DNA of 64,000 bases. Origin: Arcobacteraceae bacterium. GTDB lineage: Bacteria > Campylobacterota > Campylobacteria > Campylobacterales > Arcobacteraceae. A program made the position numbers and the translations under genes. Below, one piece after another: positions 10,869-59,734 of the stretch; the first letter of the stretch is position 1, and every line of letters begins with the position of its first letter. The notes beneath the pieces are model-generated. The model was not told where the DNA came from and made no database searches. It saw only the letters and a list, made by a program, of their open reading frames with translations. The stretch covers positions 128,001 to 192,000 of the forward strand of contig OY759974.1 of assembly GCA_963662945.1 (NCBI GenBank). Direction: 5' to 3'.

Positions 10869-12977
10869 TTACCTTTGTTTTAATTTATAATTTTGACGCA
10901 AATCAAAAAGTTGTTTTAAATTAAATTCAATATACAATATATCTTGTCTTGTAACACTTCCATTTGTTGTATTTGTAGCAACTAAAGAATTAACATATTT
11001 TAAATTTAAAGCCCAACATTTTTCGTCTATTCCAAAGATATATTGTTTTTTTCTACTCACATCTTGAATCATATCATATTCTTCTTTGTAGCTAAGACTA
11101 TAATACTTATAAAAATCAAACCCTAATTCATATGTTATATACTCATCTTTTAAAAATGTAAGTTCATCCTTTTTATAACTATGATAAAGTTTTACAAAAG
11201 TATTTTCATAATTTACATTAATATTTGAAACTGATGAAACTATCTCTTTTAATGTATAATTATAAAATAATCTATTTGCAAGAGAACCATATTGAAAATA
11301 AATTATTAAATCATTTTCTAAATTCCCTTCTTCATATTTTTTTGTTAATTCATTATATGAATATATTTGATTCATTTTATGTGTAATTATAGGTGATACC
11401 GTTTCTTTTGTATAAAATGATTGCGAAAATCCTAAAGATATTGTTTCTTGAATACCAGAAATTGGAAATATAGATAATGTGTCATTTTGTGCATTACCAA
11501 TTAAATCTGGATTATAAATACTACCCTCTTTTTTAAAAACATTAGGCTTAGTATAAGTTCCCATTAAATTCAATGTATGTATAAAACTATCATAAGGTTT
11601 AACTAAATCTGTATAAATAGAAATAATATGATTTGTTGACCCATAATTGGCGCTATCATATAGATTATTATCATTTGTATAATCTATATTTGTATAGTTA
11701 ATTTGTTCACTTAAAGAGATATTTAAATAATCATCTAAAAGTGTAAAACTATAATTTATTGGAACATAAACTTGAGTAGTATTAGCCCCTATACCTATAT
11801 CTCGAGTATCTCGAGTTACTTTTGTGTCAAGAGAATAAGATAATTTATCCAATAATAAACTATCAGAATATTTATGTAAATTTACTGCTGGTAATGTTTG
11901 CATTACATCATCATTATTATCTTTAGATAAGTCATCATAATACTTCATCTCTAAATCACCATAATACTTATTTGTATTATAATAATACTTTAACGATGAT
12001 TCTAAAAATTTATCAGTATAAGTACTCGTATCATTGTCATATCGTGTATCTAAATAATCAACATCATTCATACTTACAAAATCTATCAATAAACCGTCTG
12101 TTGTAGTTAGATTATCAGAAAATAAATTTGTTCGTAAATAATTTAAACTCGTACCATAATGTTTACTATTCACAAGCTTATTTTCATCTTGATATTCATC
12201 ATTTTCCTCAAATATACCTGTTTCAAATTTTAAATAAGAATAAGCGGAGTCTTTATACCTATAATTGAAATATATTCCACCTCCTCTATCTGTTCTTATT
12301 TGGGGAATAAACTCCATATCATAATTTGATTGTGGTGCATAATAGATTGGTTGTGCATAAACAAAACCTTCATCTTTTGAAATTCCAATTGTTGGTGGTA
12401 ATAATCCAGTTCGTCTTGTTTTATCAGTTGAGAACCCAAAATAAGGTGTGTATATTATTGGAAAATTGTTAATAAAAAGAGTTGTATTATATGTATTTAC
12501 CCATTTTTCTTCAGTATCATAATCCCCACTTGTAAAGCTAAGACTCCAAGCAGGATTACTACAATCACAGCTAGACATTGTTGAGTTATTTAAATTATAA
12601 GTATTTTTTGTTGCGTCTGTATCTGATGAATTAAACCATAACTGACTTTTATTATCAAGCATTAACATTGGTGTTATCTTTTTAATCTCTTTATTATTGT
12701 CTATAAAAAGATATTGTGAAAAACTCACTTGTTGATTGTTTTTTATTAAATTAACATCATCAAATAATTCTATAGTTGCATTCGTTTTATCATAAATTAG
12801 CTTTTTTGAAGTAATATAATAGTTTTGTGAAAATACAACCACATCACCAACTGCTGTAATAATATTATCCTTAGTATTAAGGTTTTTTGCAACTATCTGT
12901 ATATTTTCATCTGTAAACTCAGCTGCATTAACTAACGTATAAGTAAAAAAAATAAAATATAAAAAAAATCTATGCAT
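10869..12977 (-). CDS. lptD: LPS-assembly protein LptD
   Basis: Signal peptide, SSCDCSNPAW, PIIYTPY, RRTGLLPP, C-terminal KCW; lies in the purD-RDD-lptD-PRT-pnp run. Confidence 0.88.
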   Translation of the reverse strand: MHRFFLYFIFFTYTLVNAAEFTDENIQIVAKNLNTKDNIITAVGDVVVFSQNYYITSKKLIYDKTNATIELFDDVNLIKNNQQVSFSQYLFIDNNKEIKKITPMLMLDNKSQLWFNSSDTDATKNTYNLNNSTMSSCDCSNPAWSLSFTSGDYDTEEKWVNTYNTTLFINNFPIIYTPYFGFSTDKTRRTGLLPPTIGISKDEGFVYAQPIYYAPQSNYDMEFIPQIRTDRGGGIYFNYRYKDSAYSYLKFETGIFEENDEYQDENKLVNSKHYGTSLNYLRTNLFSDNLTTTDGLLIDFVSMNDVDYLDTRYDNDTSTYTDKFLESSLKYYYNTNKYYGDLEMKYYDDLSKDNNDDVMQTLPAVNLHKYSDSLLLDKLSYSLDTKVTRDTRDIGIGANTTQVYVPINYSFTLLDDYLNISLSEQINYTNIDYTNDNNLYDSANYGSTNHIISIYTDLVKPYDSFIHTLNLMGTYTKPNVFKKEGSIYNPDLIGNAQNDTLSIFPISGIQETISLGFSQSFYTKETVSPIITHKMNQIYSYNELTKKYEEGNLENDLIIYFQYGSLANRLFYNYTLKEIVSSVSNINVNYENTFVKLYHSYKKDELTFLKDEYITYELGFDFYKYYSLSYKEEYDMIQDVSRKKQYIFGIDEKCWALNLKYVNSLVATNTTNGSVTRQDILYIEFNLKQLFDLRQNYKLKQR

Positions 12978-13413
12978 TTACAACCAATGTTTTTCCGAAC
13001 TTATCGTGAAGTGTTTGTCGAGAATCCGTATAATATGCAAGAAGAAAACCAATATAAAAAATCATCTCACTAATAATTCTTCCACCAGATCGTAATGCAC
13101 TATTTACTAATGATACTTTCCCAAAATCATCAAAGTCTATAACTTTAATTTTTGCTATTAATTTTCCAATAGTTGCTCCGTAATACCAAATAAAAAATGT
13201 TTGATATATAAACTTAATAAAAACTATTTGAAAAAAGGCAGAGTTCATTATAGTCATAATAGCAATAAAATCACCATTTGAAGCTTTAACACTATCCCAT
13301 AACAATAGCAATACCAATAAAGTTATTGATAAATCATCAATTATAAAAGCTTTTACTCTAGAACCCATAGAAGCAAGCTGTAAATTATCTATATCTATTT
13401 TGTTATTTTCCAT
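12970..13413 (-). CDS. RDD family membrane protein
   Basis: LASMGSRVKAFIID, GATIGK, RQTLHDK. Confidence 0.9.
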   Translation of the reverse strand: MENNKIDIDNLQLASMGSRVKAFIIDDLSITLLVLLLLWDSVKASNGDFIAIMTIMNSAFFQIVFIKFIYQTFFIWYYGATIGKLIAKIKVIDFDDFGKVSLVNSALRSGGRIISEMIFYIGFLLAYYTDSRQTLHDKFGKTLVVNA

Positions 13414-13422
13414 AGACTCTTC

Positions 13423-14694
13423 TTATTTTAAAGCTTGATATGCTATATCTGTTCTACACTTTTTTCCAGCAAAATGAACTTGGCCACAAAGTGCATAAGC
13501 TCTATCTCTTGCAGTTTGAATATCACTTCCAAATCCTATACATAATAAAACTCTACCACCCGTTGCTAATAGAGTGTCACCATCTTTTTTTACACCAGCA
13601 TAAGAGATATGAGAATTCTCTTTTAATACTTCATCATGGATTTCATCAACTATAATTTCAGCAGGTACGCTATCCCCATAAGGATAATTACCACTAGCCA
13701 TAACTACTGCAACACCATACTGTTTTTTAATTTTAATATCTAACTTATCAAGTTGCTTTGTAGCACCTTTATAAAACAATTCACTCACTGGTGTTTCAAG
13801 AAGTGGCATAAGTATCTCACACTCAGGATCACCAAACCTTACATTATATTCCAAAATTATAGGTTCGCCATCAACGACCATTACTCCAATAAATAAAACA
13901 CCTTCAAACGGAGCTCCTTCTTGCTTCATTCCAGCAATTGTAGGTTTAATTACTCGTTCTTCTACTTTTTTATAAATATCATCATTGACAAGTGGAGTTG
14001 GAGCATAAGCACCCATACCTCCTGTATTTGGACCAGTATCACCATCCCCTACTCTTTTATGATCTTGAGCAGCTGGTAAAACTACATAATTATCCCCATC
14101 ACAAATAGCAAAAATAGAAAGTTCATATCCATCTAAATATTCTTCAACAACTACCTTATTTCCCGCATCACCAAAACTTTCTCCACTTAGCATACCACTT
14201 ACGGCATTTTTAGCTTCCTCTTTTGAAGTTGCTATTATTACACCTTTTCCTGCACATAAACCATCTGCTTTTACAACAATAGGAGTTTTAGTCATACTAT
14301 CTATAAAATTGAAAGCTTCTTCTTTTGATGATGTTTCAATAAATGCAGCTGTTGGGATATTATATTTTTTAAGTATATTTTTCATATATACTTTACTACC
14401 CTCTAACTGTGCTGCTTTTGCACTTGGCCCAAAAATAGTTAAACCTTCTTCTTTAAAGATGTCAACTACACCATCAACAAGTGGTTGTTCTGGCCCTACT
14501 ATGGTAAGTTCTATATTGTTATTCTTTGCCCAAGAAGCTAATTCTTTATAATCTTTTATATTGATATTGCTACCTAACTTATCCGTAGCACCATTTCCTG
14601 GACAAAAAGTAATATTGTGTTTTTTATCTTCTTTTGAAATTGCAAGTCCAATAGAGTATTCTCTACCACCACTCCCAAGTATTAAAATATTCAT
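13423..14694 (-). CDS. purD: Phosphoribosylamine-glycine ligase
   Basis: [54 protein letters not shown]. Confidence 0.98.
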
Positions 14695-49679: not shown

Positions 49680-50244
49680 AAAACAACAAGAGTTTTATAG
49701 AATACTTATAAACCAAATGATGGATTTCAACGAAGACTTCCACAAAGAGTTCACAATCAATAGAATTGAACAAATATCTGATGATAATCTCAAATACCTT
49801 CTTGAAGATATTAATACGGACAAAGACAATATAGTAAAGAAAAAAGGGTATATCACTTACGCTAAGTTTATCTACTATGCAGATAAAATGATAGATAAAA
49901 AAATCGAACTTAGTATGAAGCCACAAACTTCAAAGGTAGATGAACTCTATAATAAAAGAGAACTTCTTATAAATACCATACAAAATCAAACAAAATCTTT
50001 GCAAGAACGAAATGAGCTTATAGAAAATCTTAAAAACAGAGTTGTAATGTTTAAAAAAGAAGATGGAAAAAATATCTTAGATGAGATTGACTACTTTATC
50101 ATTGAACAGTTTGGATTTTATAACTTTTTTGATGAAAATAAAAACTATATGATAAAAGAGGAGATAGAAAACTATCTAAAACTCTACACTACAAATCAAA
50201 TGCTACTCAAAGAGAGCGATACAAAAAAACTTATCAATAATTAA
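49672..50244 (+). CDS. Hypothetical protein coupled to the DnaT-like gene
   Basis: 190-aa helical ORF overlapping the upstream gene by 8 nt. Confidence 0.7.
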   Translation: MTKKQQEFYRILINQMMDFNEDFHKEFTINRIEQISDDNLKYLLEDINTDKDNIVKKKGYITYAKFIYYADKMIDKKIELSMKPQTSKVDELYNKRELLINTIQNQTKSLQERNELIENLKNRVVMFKKEDGKNILDEIDYFIIEQFGFYNFFDENKNYMIKEEIENYLKLYTTNQMLLKESDTKKLINN

Positions 50245-50253
50245 AGATATCCC

Positions 50254-50262
50254 TGCTATAAT
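50254..50262 (+). promoter_or_regulatory. Extended -10 promoter of tRNA-Leu
   Basis: TGCTATAAT 14 nt upstream of the tRNA. Confidence 0.7.
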
Positions 50263-50276
50263 TCCAACTCAAAAGT

Positions 50277-50361
50277 GCCGCTGTGGTGGAATGGTAGACA
50301 CGCTAGATTCAAAATCTGGTAAGCTATGCTTGTACCGGTTCAAGTCCGGTCAGCGGTACCA
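50277..50361 (+). tRNA. tRNA-Leu(CAA)
   Basis: Acceptor GCCGCTG/CAGCGGT, D-loop GGAATGGTAGAC, anticodon arm CTAGA-TTCAAAA-TCTGG, long variable arm, T arm ACCGG-TTCAAGT-CCGGT, encoded CCA. Confidence 0.96.
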
Positions 50362-50363
50362 CT
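50346..50363 (+). repeat. attL core (18-bp direct repeat, tRNA 3' end)
   Basis: CCGGTCAGCGGTACCACT, identical to 59065-59082. Confidence 0.93.
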
Positions 50364-50476
50364 GACCTATATTTAATACAAATACATAAAACTATATAAA
50401 TATCCATAAATACTAGCCCTATTCTTAATATTGTTCTATAAAAATATATAAAGTTTAATTTAGATACCATTCTTGT

Positions 50477-50522
50477 AATACCTTTTTTGTTACCTTTTAT
50501 ATAAATTTGGTGTTACCTTTTT
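50477..50522 (+). repeat. Putative integrase arm-type sites (left)
   Basis: AATACCTTTTT (50477), TGTTACCTTTT (50488), TGTTACCTTTTT (50511). Confidence 0.7.
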
Positions 50523-50532
50523 TGGAGCGTGT

Positions 50533-51678
50533 ATGAAAGATAAGCTTATATCAACAAAATATGAGGGTGTTTACTACAAAGAGTTAAATAAACTTTTCAA
50601 TGGTAAGCCTGACCTATCCTACTATATTATGTATAGAAGTGGTGGAAAACAGATAAAAAAATCTGTTGGTAAAAAATCTATGAAAATGACTACTGCTAAA
50701 GCTTATCAAAAAAGGCAAGATGTCATATACGAAATAAAACACGGTATAAATGAACATAATTCAAAAGATAAAACATTTATAGAACTCCTAGATAAATGGT
50801 ATGAAGATAAAAAAACTAATTTAAAATCTATACATGAAGATTATAATAGACTAAAAAAACATGCAACAATCATACTCAATAAACATATAAGCAATATCAA
50901 ATCATCAGATATAAAAACAATATATGATCATATGATAGATAATGGACTTAGTGAACAAACATTTAAAAGAGTTTTTTCTATGTATAAAAGAGTTATGAGC
51001 CACAGCCTAGCCCATGAATACATTAAACAAGTTCCAAATGTTGTATTTAATAAATCTATCAAAGATAATAAAGTAACAGAGATATACACAGATGATATGA
51101 TAAAAAACTACATAGAAGTGATACAAAACTATCCTGATACAACTATAGCTAAAATAATCATGCTTATACTCAATACAGGTATGAGAAGAAGTGAACCACC
51201 CAAATTAAAATGGTTCAATTATAGCTATGAAAATAGTACTGTTATTATAGAAGATGCAAAAAGTGGTCAAAATGAAACTTATTATCTATCAAATAAAGCA
51301 AAAGAGATTATAGAATCACAAAGAGGATTTACACGATCGTATATATTTGAAGATTATCATAGAAATCCTATCAAAGTAGGAAAAATATCTTATCATGCTT
51401 CAAGGATGAAGCTTATGGCGGGATTACCTGACCATTTTAGACCATTACACAGTCTAAGACATAGATTTGGTACAGAACTAGCAAAAAGCGGTCTTAATGC
51501 CTTTAAAATACAAAAAATGATGACACATAAGGATATTAAAACTACTCAAAGATATATAGACTTAGCAGATAAAGATATCTTAGATGATTTAAACAATGTG
51601 GAGCAGAACTCAAATATTGGGAATATTAACACTAATATAGAATCTAAAATGATAAGAGTAGATATCCATAATAATTAG
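50533..51678 (+). CDS. int: Tyrosine integrase
   Basis: Arm-binding N-terminus, LNTGMRRSE, AKSG, HSLRHRFGT, THKDIKTTQRY (complete R-K-HxxR-H-Y set). Confidence 0.95.
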   Translation: MKDKLISTKYEGVYYKELNKLFNGKPDLSYYIMYRSGGKQIKKSVGKKSMKMTTAKAYQKRQDVIYEIKHGINEHNSKDKTFIELLDKWYEDKKTNLKSIHEDYNRLKKHATIILNKHISNIKSSDIKTIYDHMIDNGLSEQTFKRVFSMYKRVMSHSLAHEYIKQVPNVVFNKSIKDNKVTEIYTDDMIKNYIEVIQNYPDTTIAKIIMLILNTGMRRSEPPKLKWFNYSYENSTVIIEDAKSGQNETYYLSNKAKEIIESQRGFTRSYIFEDYHRNPIKVGKISYHASRMKLMAGLPDHFRPLHSLRHRFGTELAKSGLNAFKIQKMMTHKDIKTTQRYIDLADKDILDDLNNVEQNSNIGNINTNIESKMIRVDIHNN

Positions 51679-51704
51679 CTATGCAAGTACTTAAAATATA
51701 TAAA

Positions 51705-51733
51705 TTGTCAAAAATTATAAAATATGCTATAAT
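51705..51733 (+). promoter_or_regulatory. Sigma70 promoter of the TA-like pair
   Basis: TTGTCA-17 nt-TATAAT with TG extension. Confidence 0.75.
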
Positions 51734-51758
51734 CACTAAATAAAATGAAAGGATTAAT

Positions 51759-52178
51759 ATGTCTATAGCAATACAAAACAATATGATATTTGCACCAATG
51801 ATGATTAAAGATGTATTAACAGCGTTAAAGGATAAAGCTGTAGATATTAAAGATAAAACTATTTTTAATAGCATGTATAAGATACTAGATATTGCTAGAG
51901 CTGATACTGCTAATGATGCAAAAGAGATTAATAATGATTTAGAAAATATATCAATAGAAGATATAGCAACAATCGAATTTACTCAAGCATTTGAAACATT
52001 AGAATATCTCAAAGATAACTTAATGTCATTAGAAGAACTTTATGCAAATAGTGATAATGCTTATGAAATACAACTTTATGAGATTGTAGATGAAACATTA
52101 GATAATGTTTGGCAAATTATCAATGCTTTTATGTACTTAAACTCGAAACTAGCAAAATACAAACTACAAGCTTCTTAA
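51759..52178 (+). CDS. Acidic hypothetical protein, probable antitoxin
   Basis: Acidic helical 139 aa; its TAA overlaps the ATG (TAATG) of the downstream RelE-like toxin. Confidence 0.6.
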   Translation: MSIAIQNNMIFAPMMIKDVLTALKDKAVDIKDKTIFNSMYKILDIARADTANDAKEINNDLENISIEDIATIEFTQAFETLEYLKDNLMSLEELYANSDNAYEIQLYEIVDETLDNVWQIINAFMYLNSKLAKYKLQAS

Positions 52179-52471
52179 TGAATATTATATTTGACAGTAA
52201 CTTTTCAAGAACAGCAAATAAATTAATTAAAAAAAGTGATTTAACACAAGAAGCTGTTGATAAAACTATAGAACAATTTAAAGACAATCCTAATTATCCA
52301 TCGCTAGAATTTAAACACATTACTTGTAAAAGAGATAAAAATAAATATTCTCTAAGAATAAATAAAAATTATCGTATTTTAGCTCATAAAATGGATGAGG
52401 AAAACATACTATTTGAATATGTACTAAATCACAAAGATTATGATAGAGCAGTGAAGCCACAAAACTGTTAA
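52178..52471 (+). CDS. RelE/HigB-like toxin
   Basis: From ATG 52178: MNIIFDSNFSRTANKL...F.DNPNYPSLEFKHI...YSLRINKNYRIL...NHKDYD. Confidence 0.75.
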   Translation: MNIIFDSNFSRTANKLIKKSDLTQEAVDKTIEQFKDNPNYPSLEFKHITCKRDKNKYSLRINKNYRILAHKMDEENILFEYVLNHKDYDRAVKPQNC

Positions 52472-52914
52472 AACATTCCCCCTCATTACAAAAATAACTT
52501 TCTAAAAAGAGATATCTCTCTGCTGCTAAATGATCTATTCCTGGTACTCGTTGTAGCTGCTACACAAAAACTCTTATAAATACCATAACAAAAGGATTTT
52601 TACAACATCATAACAATTAACTTTTTTTAACTATATTATCACTTTTTTACAACTTTTTTATACTTTTTTATCATTCTTTAGTATCAAGAAAATAAAAAAT
52701 AATCTTTATTAAACAAAAAACTAAATATTCTAGTTGATCTAGTAATGATAGAAAACCTTAATCTCTATAAAGCCTATAAGTATGGGCTTTGTGTTTATTA
52801 ACTACATTCATTAATTTCACACGATCTACAAAAGAACTCAAAAAACTAATTTTATCCATCCATTTAAATCGTATCCTGTTGAGTCACTTACCTTATTTAC
52901 ACTTTTTAAAAATA

Positions 52915-53133
52915 TGCTGTAATTTTGTCGCTGTCCGCTGTGCAGTTTCGCTGTTGCTGTTCGCTGTGCAGTTTGCTGTTTATAGTGCTTTTTTGCTGTT
53001 GCAGTTACAACAAAGCCCCATAAATAGGTACTTTATACAACTGCGGTGTATTATTGCTACTATTACATTACTGCAACTGTATTCAAGAGTATTTCAAATT
53101 TATTATATTGATAAGTTTAATATGCCAACTGCA
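52915..53133. repeat. Iteron-like array 1 (YGCWGT)
   Basis: 11 direct YGCWGT copies at 52915-53005 (13-mer CGCTGTGCAGTTT twice), then inverted copies at 53040, 53070 and 53128. Confidence 0.8.
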
Positions 53134-53233
53134 TGTATAGATTAAATATTTATACAAATCTATCAAATAAGTAGCCTACTCTATAAAATAATGTATAAAA
53201 TCAGAAATAATCAAATACTTATCAACTTTTTTA

Positions 53234-53533
53234 TGTCTTAATTAAGACAAAACACTCAAAATTAAGACAGATTAAGACACTTTGTCTTAATCTGCAAACA
53301 TCCAAATGGGTATATATGTAAAATATATATAGGTATGTGTCTTAATGTCTTAAATATATAAATAATATTCTTTTTTTACTTTATATACTAGCTTTATGAT
53401 TATTCTTAAATTAAGACGAGATTAAGACAAATTAAGACATTTGTCTTAATTAAGAGGATTTTTTTTACATTTTTCTTTAATATAGCTTAATTTTATAGTT
53501 TTAAAAAGTGAGATTAAGACATTAAGACACATA
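53234..53533. repeat. Iteron-like array 2 (TTAAGACA), probable replication origin
   Basis: TTAAGACA at 53242, 53262, 53272, 53422, 53432, 53514, 53522; TGTCTTAA at 53234, 53283, 53338, 53346, 53442; 20-bp perfect inverted repeat 53334-53353 / 53514-53533. Confidence 0.85.
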
Positions 53534-53677
53534 GCTCCATATAGAGAAAAAAGAGAGGGATATGTTCATAAATATAAAACATTCAAATGTAATATATTTA
53601 TTAGTTGTGCCTTAAATGGCAATCTAATATGTAATTTGATATGATTCAGTTTAAATAGTTACAAATAAGGTGTTTAA

Positions 53678-54430
53678 ATGATAAAATACATATATGATGA
53701 AGATGGTAATAAAACTGATGTTCAAATACCATTTGAATTATGGGAAAAAATTAAACTCAATTTAATTGATAAACATCTTTCTGATGAATTTGAAGAAATT
53801 GATAATGCGGACAATTTCTATCACACAGACTACTTACATATTCATTATATAGATATTATAGACTTATTTCTCAATAATAATGGCAAAGAAATACAAGAAG
53901 CTTACGAACATTATTTTGATTATTATAATTCGTTATCTGCGTATGATATTGAACTATTGTATATATTTAGAGGAGGTACTTTCTTCAATCTTAGAAATAA
54001 AAACTTCAATAACCATGCAAAGACATTATCTGATATATTTGAATTAACAACTCTAAATAACTTAGCAATAAATGAAGAACAATTTAATAGCATGGTTATA
54101 GAAAGCCATAGAAGAAATGAAATATCATTTTTACAATACTTTAAAATGAATTTTAAAATAAATAGAAAAATAAAATCTATAAGATTAAATAGAAAAACAG
54201 AACGAGATAGATTATTTATTTATGACATGTTACATTCAACATTTACAATTGAAAATATTATTATGGCTAAAGGCTTAGAAAAAACAGAACAAAGTATTAA
54301 TTCAATAAAAAAACATCTTTTAACTATGCTATCAAATTTCTTTTATAATGGTAATAAAGCACAAGTCTATAGAGCACAAAAAGAAGTATCAGAAAGATTA
54401 TTATATACAAATAGTAACTTTAAAATGTAA
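53678..54430 (+). CDS. Hypothetical protein (element-borne, possible regulator)
   Basis: 250-aa ORF with AAGG RBS; N-terminus YIYDEDGNKTDVQIPFELWEKI resembles Phd/antitoxin-type N-termini. Confidence 0.7.
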   Translation: MIKYIYDEDGNKTDVQIPFELWEKIKLNLIDKHLSDEFEEIDNADNFYHTDYLHIHYIDIIDLFLNNNGKEIQEAYEHYFDYYNSLSAYDIELLYIFRGGTFFNLRNKNFNNHAKTLSDIFELTTLNNLAINEEQFNSMVIESHRRNEISFLQYFKMNFKINRKIKSIRLNRKTERDRLFIYDMLHSTFTIENIIMAKGLEKTEQSINSIKKHLLTMLSNFFYNGNKAQVYRAQKEVSERLLYTNSNFKM

Positions 54431-54451
54431 TTTAACATATATAGATTGTTC

Positions 54452-54538
54452 AATAAATACATTTTAATATACTTAAATGTATTTATTTAAGCTTAATAAA
54501 AGTTAATTTAGTTCATAATTCCTTAATAAAATACATTT
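54452..54538. promoter_or_regulatory. Inverted-repeat operator-like site upstream of the xis-like gene
   Basis: AATAAATACATTT-10 nt-AAATGTATTTATT (54452-54487), plus a third half-site AAATACATTT at 54529-54538. Confidence 0.5.
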
Positions 54539-54550
54539 AAGGATATTAAA

Positions 54551-54754
54551 ATGAAACAAATTGAAGACTTCATTACAATTGAAGAGACAAGTCAACTAAC
54601 TGGTTTAACTCCAAAATCACTATCAAACTATCGTTCTAGAAAAGTAAAGTTTCCATTTTACAAAATGGGTGGGCAAATTTGGTACAAAAAATCTGAAATA
54701 CTAGAAATTATAAACAATAGTAGAGTATCTGTATCTACAGAGGTACAGTCATGA
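54551..54754 (+). CDS. Excisionase/AlpA-like HTH protein
   Basis: FITIEETSQLTGLTPKSLSNYRS...PFYKMGGQIWYKKSEI. Confidence 0.85.
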   Translation: MKQIEDFITIEETSQLTGLTPKSLSNYRSRKVKFPFYKMGGQIWYKKSEILEIINNSRVSVSTEVQS

Positions 54755-54960
54755 TACAAGAATACGAAATCAAAGACTACATCAATCAAGAGTTATCTAA
54801 AAATCAAACCATAGAAGTACTAACTGACCATTTAGTGGAACATACAGATATATTAACATTCATAGTAACCAAACACAATGGGGATACAATGAATATATCA
54901 AGAACTAGAAAAATTGCCTATGTAAAAAACTATATTGAGAATGTACAACGATATGGATAA
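54751..54960 (+). CDS. Small hypothetical protein
   Basis: ATGA overlap with the xis-like gene; GAGG RBS. Confidence 0.7.
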   Translation: MIQEYEIKDYINQELSKNQTIEVLTDHLVEHTDILTFIVTKHNGDTMNISRTRKIAYVKNYIENVQRYG

Positions 54961-55201
54961 TCTATTAAGAGATTTAAAATACTTCTTACTACACCATTAT
55001 GAGCAAGGGAAAAGTAAAAAGGTACTTTTAGGGCTACTTAATGAACTAGAAGATGAAAAAAAAGCTATATTACAAGTATATTTTAAATTAAAACAAGAAG
55101 ATATAAAACCAATTTTAGTAAAACAATTACTCATGAAGTATATCAATGAGATAACCATACAAATTGATAATAAGCGGAAAAAATTGAATAAGATAATATA
55201 G
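54953..55201 (+). CDS. Small hypothetical protein
   Basis: Likely start ATG 54953 overlapping the upstream gene end; helical 82 aa. Confidence 0.6.
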   Translation: MDNLLRDLKYFLLHHYEQGKSKKVLLGLLNELEDEKKAILQVYFKLKQEDIKPILVKQLLMKYINEITIQIDNKRKKLNKII

Positions 55202-55385
55202 CTATAAATTTCCCTATATATAGATAATACAATCACATAATTATGGGATTGTGGGGTAATTAATTCTTAAGGGTAATTCTTAAGTGAGAGGATAAGGGAG
55301 AGGAATTGAAACAAAATAAAATTAAAATTGAAGTGTCTAAAAAACACTAATCAATATAAAAAAACTTTAAACAATAGGAATAAAA

Positions 55386-57134
55386 TTGCAACATTATAGC
55401 TTACAAACAGAACAATCAGTATTAGCAACTTTAATTGATAACTATGATAAGTTTGAAAAATATCATACTCAATTAAAACCTGAAACATTTTTCTATGAAG
55501 CTAACCAAAGTATCTATAGTGCTATGCAAATTCTCTATAAAGATGATAAGCCTATAGATGCAGACTTTATAAGGCAAGAGCTAGATAAACAAGGAACTTC
55601 TATAGATGATTTCTTAATAGCAGTTATTACAAGTACTCCTACGGCAGTTATTGAAAAATATATTAAACAACTGCAGAAAGCACATGAAGAAAGAGAGGCT
55701 TTATCAGTAACTACCCTACTAAGAGAAGGGAAAATATCTGTAGAGCAACTGCAAACTAAACTTTCCAAGATACAAAACTTATACGATCGTGTTGAAAACA
55801 ATGAACTATCAAATAAAACTATTAATTTAGATAAACTATCTCCATTTTTAAAAGATGTGATCACTGACTTGCATAGTATAAATGAACATCCTATAAATAT
55901 GATACTTTCTACTGTCTTAACCTCAATGGGTGGACTTATCGGTGCTAGAGCTAAAGTAACAAATGGAATGTTTGAAGTTTATCCTGTAATATGGAGTATC
56001 ATAGTTGCCCCGTCATCATTAGCAACGAAATCAACACTTACTAGATATACCAAAAAATGTATCTTTGGTGAGCTTCAAGATAATCTATTTGAAGAATATA
56101 GAGGAAGACTGGAAAAATACAAAGAAGAAAGAAAAGCCTATAATAATCTATCGAAAGAAGATAAAAGAAACGAGATAGAACCTGAAAAGCCTGAACCACA
56201 ACTTCTTATATTTCAAAATGATGGTACACCTGAAGCAAAACTCAAATCTTTAGAAGATAATCCAAATGGTGGAGTTGTGTATTATGATGAGATGAAAGCA
56301 GAACTAGAAAAAACCAACAACGATAAAAGCTATAAAGCATTAAAAACATCTACCTTTGATGGAGATAGATTTCATAAAAGACTTGTAAATGGTGGTAGTA
56401 TCATACTTGAACATCCTATATTATGTGAAAATGGACTTATAACAGAACAATGGCTGTTAGATGTTATTCACAAAGATGATATCGTGAGTGGATTTATGGC
56501 AAGGTTTCTATTTAGTTACAATAAAAAAGAAGATTTTAAACCACTACAGATAAAACCACTTAGTATAAAAGTAGAAAAATATGCAAAAGTTGGAGAGTTT
56601 ATAATAGAAATGTTAGAACTTGAATGTAAAGAGCCAAATTTATTTAATCTTACTCTTGAAGCTAGAAATTATTACACTAATTGGTTTAATGACTTGTCAG
56701 ACACCATCTTCTATACTGAAACAGATGAAGAGATTACATCTAGCTATAGACTTACTACCTATGTTCTAAAATTTGCACTTATTAGCTATATTTTTGATAT
56801 GGCATATCAAGAAAATAATATCATCAAAAGTGGTTCAATAGCAATACCACTAAAATACATAAAAGAAGCTATATATCTTTTTGAGATATTTAGAGATGAA
56901 AATGACAAAGTACTTGCATTGTTTCAAAAGAATAATAAACTACATAAAACACTTGATGATATCTCAATGAAACTACAAAATAAGATTAGAGCTACTAAAG
57001 ATAAAAGAATATCAAAAACAAATGCAACTAATAGTATTAGAGGATTAAATGCTAAAAAATTAGATGAATTTATTGAGAAAAATTTATTTAGAATTGAGCA
57101 GATAGATAGAGTTAATTATATCTTTGAATGTTGA
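55386..57134 (+). CDS. DnaB N-terminal domain fused to DUF3987 (YfjI-like) P-loop domain; element replication protein
   Basis: HYSLQTEQSVLATLI...LKPETFFYEANQSIYSAM..L...DKPIDADFI is DnaB-N-like; VYPVIWSIIVAPSSLATKST, DGTPEA, VYYDE and GFMARFLF are DUF3987-like. Confidence 0.82.
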   Translation: MQHYSLQTEQSVLATLIDNYDKFEKYHTQLKPETFFYEANQSIYSAMQILYKDDKPIDADFIRQELDKQGTSIDDFLIAVITSTPTAVIEKYIKQLQKAHEEREALSVTTLLREGKISVEQLQTKLSKIQNLYDRVENNELSNKTINLDKLSPFLKDVITDLHSINEHPINMILSTVLTSMGGLIGARAKVTNGMFEVYPVIWSIIVAPSSLATKSTLTRYTKKCIFGELQDNLFEEYRGRLEKYKEERKAYNNLSKEDKRNEIEPEKPEPQLLIFQNDGTPEAKLKSLEDNPNGGVVYYDEMKAELEKTNNDKSYKALKTSTFDGDRFHKRLVNGGSIILEHPILCENGLITEQWLLDVIHKDDIVSGFMARFLFSYNKKEDFKPLQIKPLSIKVEKYAKVGEFIIEMLELECKEPNLFNLTLEARNYYTNWFNDLSDTIFYTETDEEITSSYRLTTYVLKFALISYIFDMAYQENNIIKSGSIAIPLKYIKEAIYLFEIFRDENDKVLALFQKNNKLHKTLDDISMKLQNKIRATKDKRISKTNATNSIRGLNAKKLDEFIEKNLFRIEQIDRVNYIFEC

Positions 57135-57145
57135 AAGGAAATACC

Positions 57146-58057
57146 ATGACACCACAAGTAAAAAAACTATTAGTACAATATAAAAGATATAGCTACTTTG
57201 TAGAGCAATATAATACTTATCTAGTATTAAAAGGTCATTGTAAAAATACAACTAATACATATATGAGACAAGCAAAAAAGTTTTTTATATTTATGAATAA
57301 AGATCTTATAGATAGAGATATGGTTATGAAATTTGTTATGCAACAGAAAACTACAGAGTCATCAACTAAAAATCATATTATATCTTGCACTAACAATATC
57401 ATAGAATTTGCTGAAAGTATAAATAAGTTTGATGACAATAAAAAAGGATTTAAACTATGTTCGGTACGAAATCATAGAAAAATACCTAAGATACTATCCT
57501 ATGAAGATATATCTGTCGTATTAGATACTCTAAAGAATAATAGAAAAGATTGGATGAGCTATAGGGATTATGCACTATTTATATTTTTATACGCAACAGG
57601 TGTGAGAGTAAGTGAATGTATAGAACTAACAACAGCTGATTTAATAGAAGATAAGCTCATAAAAGTAAATAATGGTAAAGGTAGTAAGGATAGAATAGTT
57701 CCTATAGCGATGAAAGCAGTAGAAGCACTAAAAGAATATATAGAACTTTGTCCCTTTGATACATCAAAAAACTTGTGGGTTAACTACATGGGTAAAAAGA
57801 TAAGTAGAATTTCTATATTTAAAATCACTAAAAATTGTGCAAATATAAGCCCACATAAACTAAGACATAGCTACGCAACACATTTATATAATAATGGTAT
57901 GGATTTAATGGTTCTTAGTCAATTATTAGGTCATGAGAATATTGAGACAACAGAGATATATCTTCATGTAGATAATAAGCAACTAAAAGAATGTATAGCT
58001 AAACACCACCCTATTAATAATTTAACTCAAGAGCAAAGGCAATCTATATTATGTTAA
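57146..58057 (+). CDS. Second tyrosine recombinase (XerC/D-like)
   Basis: RDYALFIFLYATGVRVSE, GKGSKDRIVP, SPHKLRHSYATH, LLGHENIETTEIY; AAAGGAA RBS before ATG 57146. Confidence 0.92.
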   Translation: MTPQVKKLLVQYKRYSYFVEQYNTYLVLKGHCKNTTNTYMRQAKKFFIFMNKDLIDRDMVMKFVMQQKTTESSTKNHIISCTNNIIEFAESINKFDDNKKGFKLCSVRNHRKIPKILSYEDISVVLDTLKNNRKDWMSYRDYALFIFLYATGVRVSECIELTTADLIEDKLIKVNNGKGSKDRIVPIAMKAVEALKEYIELCPFDTSKNLWVNYMGKKISRISIFKITKNCANISPHKLRHSYATHLYNNGMDLMVLSQLLGHENIETTEIYLHVDNKQLKECIAKHHPINNLTQEQRQSILC

Positions 58058-58878
58058 TCAATATGTTTGCAAAAGATGAATATTTAGGGAAAAAAGGTGG
58101 AAGTGGTATTCCTCAATTTATAATTTCTAAAATGCCTAAGCACGATATTTATATTGAAGCTTTTTTAGGAACTGGTGTAATTATGGCAAAGAAAAAAAAA
58201 GCTAAAGTTAATATTGGTATTGATAAAGATATATCTATACTGCAGAAAACAAACTTTACAGATGAATACCAAATATTACACGGAGATAGCATAATATTTA
58301 TTAAGTACCTTATAGAAAAATACATCTATGACGGAACTGTATTAGTATATCTTGACCCACCATATTTGCCTGAAACTAGAACATTTTTTAAAAACTGTAA
58401 ATATAAACACGAATTAGTACTTGATAGACATATACAACTATTAGATATCTGTACAAAATTATCTATGTTACATGATAACTTGCATTTTATGATAAGTGGT
58501 TATGCATCACAGCTTTATACAACTATGCTCGAGCATAGACATAATTGGAAACATTTTGAAACTAAAACAATGAGTAGAGGTGGAGTAAAAACAGAACATT
58601 TATGGACTAGTTTTAATCCTGATGAATATTTAAAACACGACCTTAACTATGTTGGCCATAATTTTACAGATAGACAAAGAATAAAAAGAAAAGCTAAAAG
58701 ATGGTTAAACAATTTAGAAAATATGGCTTTAGATGAAAAAACATTACTACTTGAACTGATCCATCATAGATATAAAAATCTATTTAACCAGGTATCAAAT
58801 AAAGCTGCTTACATAGATAATATTGACAATGGTGCACTAAAGTCACTTTTGTCTATAGGTGATGAAAGACAAAAATAG
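58051..58878 (+). CDS. Orphan DNA adenine methyltransferase (Dam/D12-like)
   Basis: YLGKKGG, YIEAFLGTG (SAM-binding), IGID, YLDPPY, MISGY. Confidence 0.88.
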   Translation: MLINMFAKDEYLGKKGGSGIPQFIISKMPKHDIYIEAFLGTGVIMAKKKKAKVNIGIDKDISILQKTNFTDEYQILHGDSIIFIKYLIEKYIYDGTVLVYLDPPYLPETRTFFKNCKYKHELVLDRHIQLLDICTKLSMLHDNLHFMISGYASQLYTTMLEHRHNWKHFETKTMSRGGVKTEHLWTSFNPDEYLKHDLNYVGHNFTDRQRIKRKAKRWLNNLENMALDEKTLLLELIHHRYKNLFNQVSNKAAYIDNIDNGALKSLLSIGDERQK

Positions 58879-58881
58879 CAT

Positions 58882-58911
58882 AAAAAAAAGAGCAAGACTC
58901 ACGCCCTACTC
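58882..58911 (-). terminator. Intrinsic terminator (minus strand only)
   Basis: GAGUAGGGC-GUGA-GUCUUGCUC-U8. The stem relies on G-U pairs, so it folds well only on the minus-strand RNA. Confidence 0.75.
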
Positions 58912-58949
58912 TTTCAATACTTCCAACCACGAAAGCCCCTTATATAAGT
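58882..58949 (-). ncRNA. Predicted ~68-nt small RNA of the element
   Basis: Minus-strand TGCTATAAT (58956-58964) followed by a short non-coding stretch and a GNRA-capped terminator with U8. Confidence 0.65.
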
Positions 58950-58973
58950 ACCAAAATTATAGCAAAAGAATCT

Positions 58974-59012
58974 AAAAGGTAAATATATTAATGCCTAAAT
59001 GTTACCTTTTTT
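58974..59012. repeat. Putative integrase arm-type sites (right)
   Basis: AAAAGGTAAAT (inverted, 58974) and TGTTACCTTTTTT (59000), same motif as at attL. Confidence 0.7.
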
Positions 59013-59064
59013 AAGAAAAATAACAACAATTCCCTTTATTAAAGGCATTATAACTATATTAGAA

Positions 59065-59082
59065 CCGGTCAGCGGTACCACT
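59065..59082 (+). repeat. attR core (duplicated tRNA-Leu 3' end)
   Basis: CCGGTCAGCGGTACCACT, identical to 50346-50363. Confidence 0.93.
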
Positions 59083-59158
59083 TTTTTTCATTTATATTTC
59101 AATGCCTTTGTCAAATAATATTTCTGTAAACTTTTAACTTTTACAAAAGCAAATTTTC

Positions 59159-59734
59159 CTACTTCATTACTCTTATATTACTTGGCAATAACTTCATAAC
59201 AGGCTTCTTTTTAGGTCTATTTTCAATCCAATTTCTATATATCTCTAAAACTTTATCTCTAGGTATCTCCAACGATGGATTATTTGTAAATGCCAATGCC
59301 TCTAAAACCCGTCTTTTCGTTACAACATTTTGTTGAGACTCTTGAAGTGCTATTGTTATAGTGTCTTGATTGACTAAAATGGTTCGCAAAAAAGATTCAC
59401 ATTGACCAATTTTTTGATAAGTTGTATTTGATAAGTTTTTTAATCTTTTATACTCTTGTTCAAGTCTATTTAGATATGTAGTTCTTAAGATTGACATATC
59501 TCTTGATGTCGCCTCTTTTTTATAAAGTTCTTTGTAGTATAACTTACCAAACTGTAAAGAGATCAGTTCAGCTTGTTTATAAGCTTTACTCGTAAGAGTA
59601 TTTTGTGATGTTGATAATATTAAAAAGTTTGCTGAACAAAAACCAATACCCTCAAGATTTTCTTCATAAAACTTCGGATCTGCTAGTACTACTGAAATCA
59701 TTAGACCATAAATAAACAGTAGTTTTTTCATCAT
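59159..59734 (-). CDS. Exported hypothetical protein
   Basis: Signal peptide MMKKLLFIYGLMISVVLA; two Cys; directly downstream of dapE. Confidence 0.7.
   Translation of the reverse strand: MMKKLLFIYGLMISVVLADPKFYEENLEGIGFCSANFLILSTSQNTLTSKAYKQAELISLQFGKLYYKELYKKEATSRDMSILRTTYLNRLEQEYKRLKNLSNTTYQKIGQCESFLRTILVNQDTITIALQESQQNVVTKRRVLEALAFTNNPSLEIPRDKVLEIYRNWIENRPKKKPVMKLLPSNIRVMK

Follow-up and report, generated by a model that had tools for sequence, protein, structure and literature searches.

What kind of mobile DNA occupies the 8.7 kb behind a tRNA-Leu gene in an Arcobacteraceae genome, and how is it maintained? The question is raised by a stretch of 64,000 nucleotides (the window) from contig OY759974.1 of assembly GCA_963662945.1, for which a first-pass annotation, made from the letters alone, had described a complete, self-replicating and satellite-like integrative element that depends on a helper for its transfer. 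Here, we present an intact tRNA-integrating mini-replicon, which is read, with a probability of roughly 0.6, as an excisable and self-replicating integrative plasmid of Campylobacterales whose helicase acts as the origin-binding initiator. The genome of the window (2.5 Mb) is named G000, its congeners are named G006, G009, G013 and G043, and extracted loci or contigs carry L numbers. The element comprises the following features (window coordinates, strand, description; aa, amino acids).

50277..50361, +, tRNA-Leu(CAA), the integration target, whose 3' end is rebuilt by the element (ARAGORN; Rfam tRNA 56.4 bits)
50346..50363, no strand, attL core of 18 bp, an exact repeat read directly
50477..50521, +, candidate arm-type integrase-binding sites, with GTTACCTTTT at 50489 and 50512 and a degenerate copy at about 50477, immediately 5' of the int start codon
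50533..51678, +, int, tyrosine integrase, 381 aa (PF00589 6.4e-25; phrog_1 9e-42)
51759..52178, +, putative antitoxin, 139 aa, cargo, directly 5' of the toxin gene with a TAATG overlap (no Pfam or PADLOC match)
52178..52471, +, ParE/RelE-like toxin, 97 aa, cargo (PF24732 ParE_like 1.8e-8, 34.7 bits against a cut-off of 24.4)
52926..53006, no strand, GCTGT/CTGTT short-period repeat block, read directly and conserved in G009
53234..53529, no strand, candidate iteron origin, 12 copies of TTAAGACA/TGTCTTAA in direct and inverted groups with AT-rich spacers (count and shuffles)
53678..54430, +, P250, core protein, 250 aa, an antitoxin-like N-terminal beta-alpha unit and a helical domain with no detectable known fold
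54551..54754, +, HTH_17 protein (MerR/AlpA/Xis-type), 67 aa (PF12728 30.2 bits against a cut-off of 27; phrog_66 excisionase 5.8e-5; PADLOC mad1 1e-7)
54751..54960, +, p69, conserved small core open reading frame (ORF), 29-30% identical in four other elements at the same position
54935..55201, +, p88, small ORF conserved in position only, 88% identical in G009 and 19-32% over partial alignments elsewhere
55386..57134, +, DnaB-N::DUF3987 helicase, 582 aa, proposed origin-binding initiator-helicase (PF13148 95 bits; PF00772 62 bits)
57128..58057, +, second tyrosine recombinase, XerD-like, 309 aa (TIGR02225 204 bits, below the cut-off)
58051..58878, +, orphan DNA methyltransferase, D12-class, 275 aa, semi-variable cargo (PADLOC MTase_II 1.2e-18; FLGTG and DPPY motifs)
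58886..58983, -, conserved block with a terminator-like hairpin (58915-58886) and a promoter-like site (58983-58956), from a sequence scan
59001..59010, +, candidate arm-type site on the attR side, a GTTACCTTTT copy
59065..59082, no strand, attR core of 18 bp, an exact repeat read directly

Family searches recovered all of the protein genes that the first-pass annotation had named, including int, the toxin-antitoxin pair, the 250-aa protein, the helix-turn-helix protein, two small ORFs, the DnaB-N::DUF3987 helicase, the Xer-like recombinase and the methyltransferase. As had also been stated, these genes are intact and co-oriented, all sizeable ORFs between the att cores lying on the + strand, and searches of the element proteins with Pfam, PHROGs, NCBIfam and PADLOC gave no domain of a capsid, terminase, relaxase or primase.

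Borders, empty sites and the element family

The 18-mer CCGGTCAGCGGTACCACT, which lies over the 3' end of tRNA-Leu(CAA), the sole tRNA that ARAGORN detects in the window, is present in two exact copies at 50346-50363 and 59065-59082, with the spacing of 8719 bp that had been predicted for the unit. Exact GTTACCTTTT occurs three times in the window, and all of these copies are located at the ends of the element. In six related elements, comprising the aligned copy of G009 and five further loci and including both elements with short cores, three copies of the motif GTTRCCTTTT lie in the interval from the attL core to the start of int, and one or two lie 60-80 bp 5' of the attR core. The borders are therefore confirmed, because the arm sites provide a second signal beside the core repeats.

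A match to the left flank of the element was obtained in every one of the 28 species genomes of the genus, G000 among them, and a match to the right flank in 25 of these. The first-pass annotation had named relatives lacking any empty site as the outcome that would speak against an excisable element, and a clean empty site exists in G043, where the left flank stops at 1302997 and the right flank begins at 1302995. In G043 and G006 the core is followed by a T-run, the same as on the attR side of the element, while the site of G013 is nearly empty, and none of the 10 query proteins of the element had a match at these three unoccupied sites. G009 carries the same element in the same tRNA-Leu (attL exact, attR with one mismatch, DNA identity of 90-94%), which aligns with that of the window in two long blocks, each 91% identical. 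In the G009 copy, the toxin-antitoxin pair is missing together with the first 450 bp of the noncoding gap, and their place is taken by the gene of a KAP-family NTPase (441 aa) in the opposite orientation; the methyltransferase is absent as well. Among equally close relatives, the site is occupied, occupied by a variant or empty, which fits the prediction for a site-specific mobile element and, together with the arm-type sites at both ends, bears out its description as complete and site-specific.

Homologues of the element were searched for with an alignment of four helicases against one genome per species (185,579 species), which yielded eight loci, all of them in Campylobacterales. In six of the eight, tblastn recovered the order tRNA, int, P250, HTH_17, (p69) and helicase, as well as a second tyrosine recombinase. 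These six loci are as follows.

L048 (G009), tRNA-Leu(CAA), Arcobacteraceae metagenome-assembled genome (MAG)
L052, tRNA-Leu(CAA), Arcobacter sp. MAG
L050, tRNA-Phe(GAA), Arcobacter sp. MAG
L054, tRNA-Phe(GAA), Arcobacter sp. MAG
L051, tRNA-Thr(GGT), Halarcobacter sp. MAG, which carries a methyltransferase
L055, tRNA-Ser(GGA), Sulfurimonas indica, in which the recombinase precedes the helicase

In all six loci, the tRNA 3' end is repeated 7516-8839 bp downstream, over 14-21 bp in four and 11 bp in two. A scan of metagenomes added 15 contigs, including five of the integrative type; among these five, L066 contains an element in full at tRNA-Ser, with its two borders, the 11-bp core being repeated 7794 bp downstream. 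Altogether, eight complete integrated copies, that of the window included, are present in tRNA-Leu, -Phe, -Thr or -Ser genes of Arcobacteraceae and Sulfurimonas. The integrase of the window is 94% identical to that of G009, 58-60% to those of other Arcobacteraceae elements and 41% to that of Sulfurimonas. Two metagenome contigs from different samples (L063 and L072) are both 7243 bp long, start 34-57 nt 5' of tRNA-Ser and carry a Sulfurimonas-type element; assembly appears to break at repeats, because L063 ends inside its own iteron array.

The element family is small and rare, has been found only in Campylobacterales and is apparently undescribed. A literature search of incomplete coverage found no published description of the gene set or family, nor of satellites in these genera, in line with the earlier remark that the combination was not recognised as a described family. 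The synteny that had been proposed for a genome search recurs with respect to int, the DUF3987 helicase and the second recombinase, whereas the methyltransferase is variable, a 57% identical homologue being carried by L051 and none by G009. Most of the small integrative replicons and satellites known so far come from Gammaproteobacteria and Firmicutes. The family would add a very compact example from Campylobacterales, with a clear origin, equally clear att and arm sites, and interchangeable slots in which defence candidates reside.

An iteron origin and its free circular relatives

The noncoding gap between toxin and P250 (52472-53677) measures 1206 bp and does contain the two arrays reported for a 1.2-kb noncoding region, namely the GCTGT-type block and the iterons. 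The iteron word TTAAGACA/TGTCTTAA is present in 16 copies in the window against 5.8 expected, a number reached by 0 of 100 shuffles, and 12 of the 16 copies lie within 296 bp. Across the 2.5-Mb genome there are 107 such sites, and their sole cluster is that of the element. The array consists of a direct pair with an inverted copy, AT-rich DNA, an inverted pair, AT-rich DNA, a direct triplet with an inverted copy, a spacer and a direct pair. The same TTAAGACA word and layout are found in five other integrative elements (6-12 copies), and the arrays of Sulfurimonas elements have the identical layout, built from TTATACA. The gap also contains an ORF of 118 aa (52789-53145), which probably does not represent a gene, as it is unconserved in G009, where homology begins at 52930. 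GCTGT/CTGTT (or AACAG) blocks also precede the iterons by a few hundred bp in L052 (about 14090-14130, inverted) and L054 (about 12960-13030).

The same replicon is carried by contigs that resemble plasmids. In L064, L065, L068, L069, L070 and L071, the helicase was the only one of the element proteins with a match, and each of these contigs has 6-11 copies of TTAAGACA, arranged as in the integrative elements. L069 (9922 bp) ends in a 92-bp terminal direct repeat and L070 (10240 bp) in one of 127 bp, while L053, which stems from the independent assembly of a MAG, has the sequence of L070 at 100% identity in a circularly permuted order. Because of the terminal direct repeats and this permutation, the plasmid-like contigs are taken as circles of about 10 kb. 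Besides the helicase, their genes are for two serine resolvases, a small AAA ATPase, a protein resembling YdjM, a methyltransferase and, in some cases, a nuclease; an integrase is absent, and no capsid, terminase or relaxase match was obtained. The helicase, (methyltransferase) and iterons follow each other in the order that is also seen in the integrative element L051.

In a maximum-likelihood tree of 19 helicase rows (midpoint root for drawing only), the seven plasmid-like rows (94/96) are sister to eight Arcobacteraceae integrative rows (97/94), and four Sulfurimonas integrative rows stand outside (100/100). Both sister clades use TTAAGACA, while the outer Sulfurimonas clade uses TTATACA. 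The helicase and iteron module being common to the element and to free circular contigs, the suggestion that the element replicates itself is very probably correct. One replicon lineage thus occurs in a free plasmid form and an integrating form, making the transition between the two lifestyles testable. Moreover, a small vector backbone could be built from the 0.3-kb iteron origin and a single gene for use in Arcobacteraceae and Sulfurimonas, for which, to our knowledge, few genetic tools exist.

As for the working of the element, Int would act at the GTTRCCTTTT arm sites and, helped by the Xis/AlpA-like HTH_17 protein, excise the element at the 18-bp core, which would restore tRNA-Leu and release an 8.7-kb circle. 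The winged-helix-like tail of the helicase would then read the TTAAGACA iterons, its DUF3987 motor would open the AT-rich spacers, and its DnaB-type N-terminal domain would recruit the host DnaG primase. The Xer-like second recombinase may subsequently resolve replication multimers, and P250 might be a family-specific regulator, repressor or sensor. The toxin-antitoxin pair and the methyltransferase, as exchangeable cargo, would favour retention and protect the DNA on entry.

The helicase is the only protein common to the integrative and plasmid-like forms. Because it is the sole protein shared by all iteron carriers, and because the iteron word follows the helicase tree, it is proposed to be both initiator and motor and to read the iterons. 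Its C-terminal 77 residues (506-582) look like a winged helix; the identity of this tail is 37% in the TTATACA element, 52-60% in four diverged TTAAGACA elements and 100% in G009, while that of the core or motor is 57% in the TTATACA element versus 63-67% in the diverged TTAAGACA elements. The motifs APSSLATKST (Walker A-like) and VVYYDE (Walker B-like) are invariant in four aligned family members. As another candidate for the iteron reader, the HTH_17 protein is less likely, since it is not carried by the plasmid-like contigs that keep the same iterons and its identity does not drop with the word (49% in the TTATACA element versus 40-51%).

The N-terminal 110-120 residues of the helicase match the DnaB N-terminal domain (best solved match, the Helicobacter pylori DnaB domain 3gxv, 7.6e-12), which in cellular DnaB is the docking site of DnaG primase. 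The element may do without a primase of its own because this domain would borrow the host DnaG, the gene of which is present in the genome. A complex prediction for two copies of the domain with the C-terminal domain of host DnaG, run without controls, scored 0.00 against a mark of 0.32. For AgaPH, DUF3987 was demonstrated to act as a 5'-3' helicase, beside a separate primase-polymerase (PMC11724360). The DnaB-N::DUF3987 fusion suggests how a mobile element could dispense with a primase.

The HTH_17 protein, which is 40-51% identical across the family, is a candidate excision factor and regulator according to its family matches. The second tyrosine recombinase is 41% identical to the chromosomal Xer paralogue of the host and is present in all integrative members examined. 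Multimer resolution would be its most economical role, because the plasmid-like relatives carry resolvases of another class.

P250 is a rare protein, with five entries among 5.8 billion 90% clusters (the window's own included), 38 clusters among 1.84 billion representatives, and three carriers among 401 sampled Campylobacterota genomes, G000 included. A first model, built from six sequences (predicted local distance difference test, pLDDT, 65), gave no structural matches. The second, an AlphaFold2 model from a 36-sequence alignment, reached a pLDDT of 85.7 and a predicted template modelling score of 0.75, and no known fold was detected for it in PDB by Foldseek (best E 0.48) or VIA (best Z 4.1), or among the viral predicted structures of BFVD (best E 0.17), nor was there a usable match in the ESM Atlas. 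A resemblance is limited to residues 1-48, which are similar to the N-terminal unit of the antitoxins PfiA (Z 3.6, root-mean-square deviation 1.7 over 46 residues) and YefM (Z 3.3), in agreement with sub-threshold RelB-like matches in 18 of 36 family members; the P250 of the window likewise has a sub-threshold RelB-like match at its N-terminus. Between G000 and G009, P250 is 65% identical and its neighbours 88-100%. The best guess is that P250 is a specificity factor or a family-specific regulator such as a repressor or sensor. It is thus conserved in the core of the family and modelled with confidence, yet resembles no known fold that could be detected.

Several observations weigh against this picture. 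No joint of an excised circle or of an empty site was found in four sequencing runs of the same organism, searched as Logan assembled contigs, which drop rare forms. The Walker A-like motif contains K-S-T, but its lysine is not preceded by the glycine that is usual there. Only one change of iteron word supports the link of this word to the helicase tail, the plasmid-like contigs could encode an unrelated initiator among their unassigned ORFs, and the position of the iteron block in the window element and in G009 differs from that in the rest of the family. The second recombinases of the family are of two types, mutually only 21-28% identical, so one shared role for them is not certain, and no target site was found for the second recombinase. 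Finally, G000 and G009 diverge alike in element and host (int 94%, flank proteins 90-94%), and a recent transfer between them is therefore not proven.

In three of the four runs, the integrated element is contained within one contig. A 5167-bp skip in the run contigs was discounted, the shorter side of the match being only 20 letters. In run X4, a second sample of the same organism, the contigs over window positions 49900-59500 break inside int (50929, 51287 and 51641), and their word depth, which is not a copy number, is about 1010-1130 in the element versus 538 in the left flank and 844 in the right flank. These breaks, and a depth of about twice that of the left flank, could reflect a second variant copy, mixed strains or episomal copies.

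Known systems and the route of transfer

Phage satellite P4 combines an integrase with a single initiator-helicase that reads origin iterons, lives integrated or as a plasmid, and carries cargo in hot spots; its alpha protein has its own primase and a different helicase fold, and its cos, sid, psu and delta exploit P2. The element resembles P4 in its integrase, in the proposed initiator-helicase at iterons and in its cargo hot spots. However, no capsid-redirecting or packaging genes like those of P4 or of phage-inducible chromosomal islands were found among the 11 element proteins with Pfam and PHROGs, by which very diverged genes may be missed. With iteron plasmids, it shares direct and inverted iterons flanking AT-rich DNA, a site-specific recombinase, a toxin-antitoxin pair and free circular relatives of about 10 kb; it differs from Rep_3 plasmids in that neither Rep_3 nor any other known Rep family was found and in the addition of an integrase, arm sites and a tRNA att site. 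Like Islander-type tRNA islands, it has a tyrosine integrase beside a tRNA whose 3' end is duplicated at the far border. In contrast, no relaxase or type IV secretion family, which together with coupling proteins characterize integrative conjugative elements, was found in the element.

Phage-inducible chromosomal minimalist islands (PICMI) are elements of Vibrionaceae, and their SatelliteFinder model consists of int (PF00589, PF00239 or PF07508), AlpA (PF05930 or PF12728), a 'primase' (DUF3987 with DUF5906) and fis (PMC10803314). The element possesses an integrase (PF00589, 6.4e-25) and an AlpA-type protein (PF12728, 30.2 bits, cut-off 27) of the listed families. For the 'primase', it has PF13148 (95 bits) and no PF19263 (DUF5906) listed at E <= 0.01; the passage that describes the model does not state whether both domains are required. 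The site is not adjacent to fis, the element residing in tRNA-Leu(CAA) and its relatives in tRNA-Phe, -Thr and -Ser. Small size, the absence of capsid and packaging genes, and defence-type cargo in a hot spot are further likenesses. On the other hand, the fusion of DnaB-N to DUF3987, P250, the second tyrosine recombinase, the iteron origin and the host phylum set the element apart, and a helper phage and packaging, as in PICMI, are not known for it. AgaPP and AgaPH are tRNA-linked elements with a PriCT-DUF3987 helicase and a PrimPol (PMC11724360). They likewise have a DUF3987 replication motor, an integrase, a tRNA link and defence cargo, but pair the helicase with an archaeo-eukaryotic primase-polymerase and PriCT, whereas the element has a DnaB-type N-terminus and encodes no primase. 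Overall, the element works most like an integrative plasmid with P4-like logic built from different parts, and it has most, though not all, of the features of the PICMI gene model.

Because no transfer genes are recognisable in the element, its spread would need an outside route, which may be a phage satellite cycle, mobilisation or transformation. A minimal phage satellite of the PICMI kind is a possibility that we hold to be real, though not likely. It differs from the integrative plasmid in the transfer route only: a helper, probably virulent, would induce the HTH_17/AlpA-like switch, with P250 as repressor or helper sensor, and excision and replication would be followed by packaging, possibly of concatemers, in helper capsids. 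The int, PF12728 and PF13148 components of the PICMI model are all present, and the small size without capsid genes, the defence-type cargo in a hot spot and the narrow size range of 7.5-8.8 kb agree with such a life. P250 varies more between G000 and G009 (65%) than its neighbours do (88-100%), as specificity factors often do. The host genome had no capsid, portal or terminase match (five Pfam families, to which control genomes responded), which would fit a virulent helper, and satellites of virulent phages, which need no resident prophage, are known.

Nevertheless, no DNA or protein link to a phage was found. A collection of 50,697 phage records gave no match for bases 50346-58100 of the element or for the right part of L055, and none for P250. 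The helicase matched eight of these records, either by its DnaB-like N-terminus only or with 21% identity across 59% of the protein, none of the matches covering at least 80%; neither the helicase nor P250 had a full-length match in phage or plasmid records, and IMG/VR contained no relatives of either. In addition, DUF5906 was not detected, the element is not beside fis, and the replicon has a plasmid-like sister lineage, which carries resolvases and is free of phage genes. The helper dependence claimed in the first-pass annotation consequently found no support in these collections. Sulfurimonas phage SNW-1 (OP810509.1), which infects S. indica, the host species of L055, has no more than a DnaB-like N-terminal match to the helicase, and its DNA does not match the tested L055:11740-14443; it is the obvious first helper candidate. 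A bolder proposal, which we regard as unlikely, is that the family represents the first phage-satellite lineage of Campylobacterota, PICMI-like and riding virulent phages of Arcobacteraceae and Sulfurimonas, with P250 as a helper-sensing repressor, a primase-less helicase that borrows DnaG, and a derivation from resolvase-bearing plasmids by gain of an integrase.

It is improbable that the element is an integrative mobilisable element, moved by a co-resident conjugative element through an unrecognised oriT. The same genome does contain a plasmid-like or conjugative region outside the window (G000:C1:270000-306000, L058 and L059), with genes for a Rep3-like protein, a 1349-aa TrwC relaxase-helicase, ArdA, a VirD4-type coupling protein, an MjaI-like restriction enzyme and type I restriction-modification, of which the TrwC, VirD4-type, ArdA and Rep3-like genes lie at about C1:270-290 kb, about 100 kb from the element. 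However, no relaxase or mobilisation protein is encoded by the element, which shares no DNA with the TrwC region or, except for the Xer paralogue, with the rest of the genome. A fixed island that has lost its mobility and is kept for its cargo (toxin-antitoxin and methyltransferase, or defence) would agree with the missing excision junction in assembled contigs and with the fact that the G000 and G009 copies have diverged about as far as their host flanks have, but is very improbable in view of core genes intact in both copies, an exact att core, arm sites kept across integrases of 41-94% identity, clean empty sites in equally close congeners and cargo exchanged between the G000 and G009 copies.

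Cargo and minor features

The ParE/RelE-like gene and the overlapping gene upstream of it would encode a small toxin and its putative antitoxin, in the arrangement characteristic of a type II toxin-antitoxin pair of this class. The best promoter-like site of the region is at 51705-51733 (11 of 12 matches). A toxin start at TTG 52109 is less likely than one at ATG 52178, which overlaps the upstream stop (TAATG). The methyltransferase had no match in PDB by sequence. Other members of the family carry different cargo: the KAP NTPase of G009 resembles PDC-S49 (1e-24), the NYN proteins of L050 and L052 match HEC-09 over the full length (2e-54 and 4.5e-57), and L054 has a PIN_8 protein (1e-60). These variable slots resemble the defence hot spots of satellites.

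The small RNA predicted in the first-pass annotation, assigned here to the block downstream of the methyltransferase, is the weak item among those listed. The minus-strand promoter-like site and terminator-like hairpin are there, and columns 58885-58957 are almost invariant compared with G009, but a 23-nt insertion in G009 breaks the promoter spacer, Rfam matched nothing but the tRNA on the element, and the + strand fold at the block has z = 0.03. The block is regarded as a conserved hairpin of unassigned role, possibly the operon terminator.

Around the integration site, an unrelated P-loop gene of about 180 aa fills a 730-bp gap between tRNA-Leu and the conserved right flank in G006 (L046, G006:C2), and it includes 12 nt of the att core, TCAGCGGTACCA, which recur about 440 nt past this tRNA and may be the trace of an older insertion there. 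In G009, attR is followed by about 1 kb of unrelated DNA (L012 12557-13589, at the end of G009:C9), including an ORF with a weak, sub-threshold LapA-domain match; the conserved right flank is on another contig (G009:C22), from 3 kb in, and a second tandem island may exist at the same tRNA. A minus-strand ORF of 191 aa adjoins attR in the window (59159-59734); it has no Pfam match and is 57-65% identical in congeners, compared with 85-91% for the M20 peptidase beside it, and represents a fast-evolving neighbour of the site.

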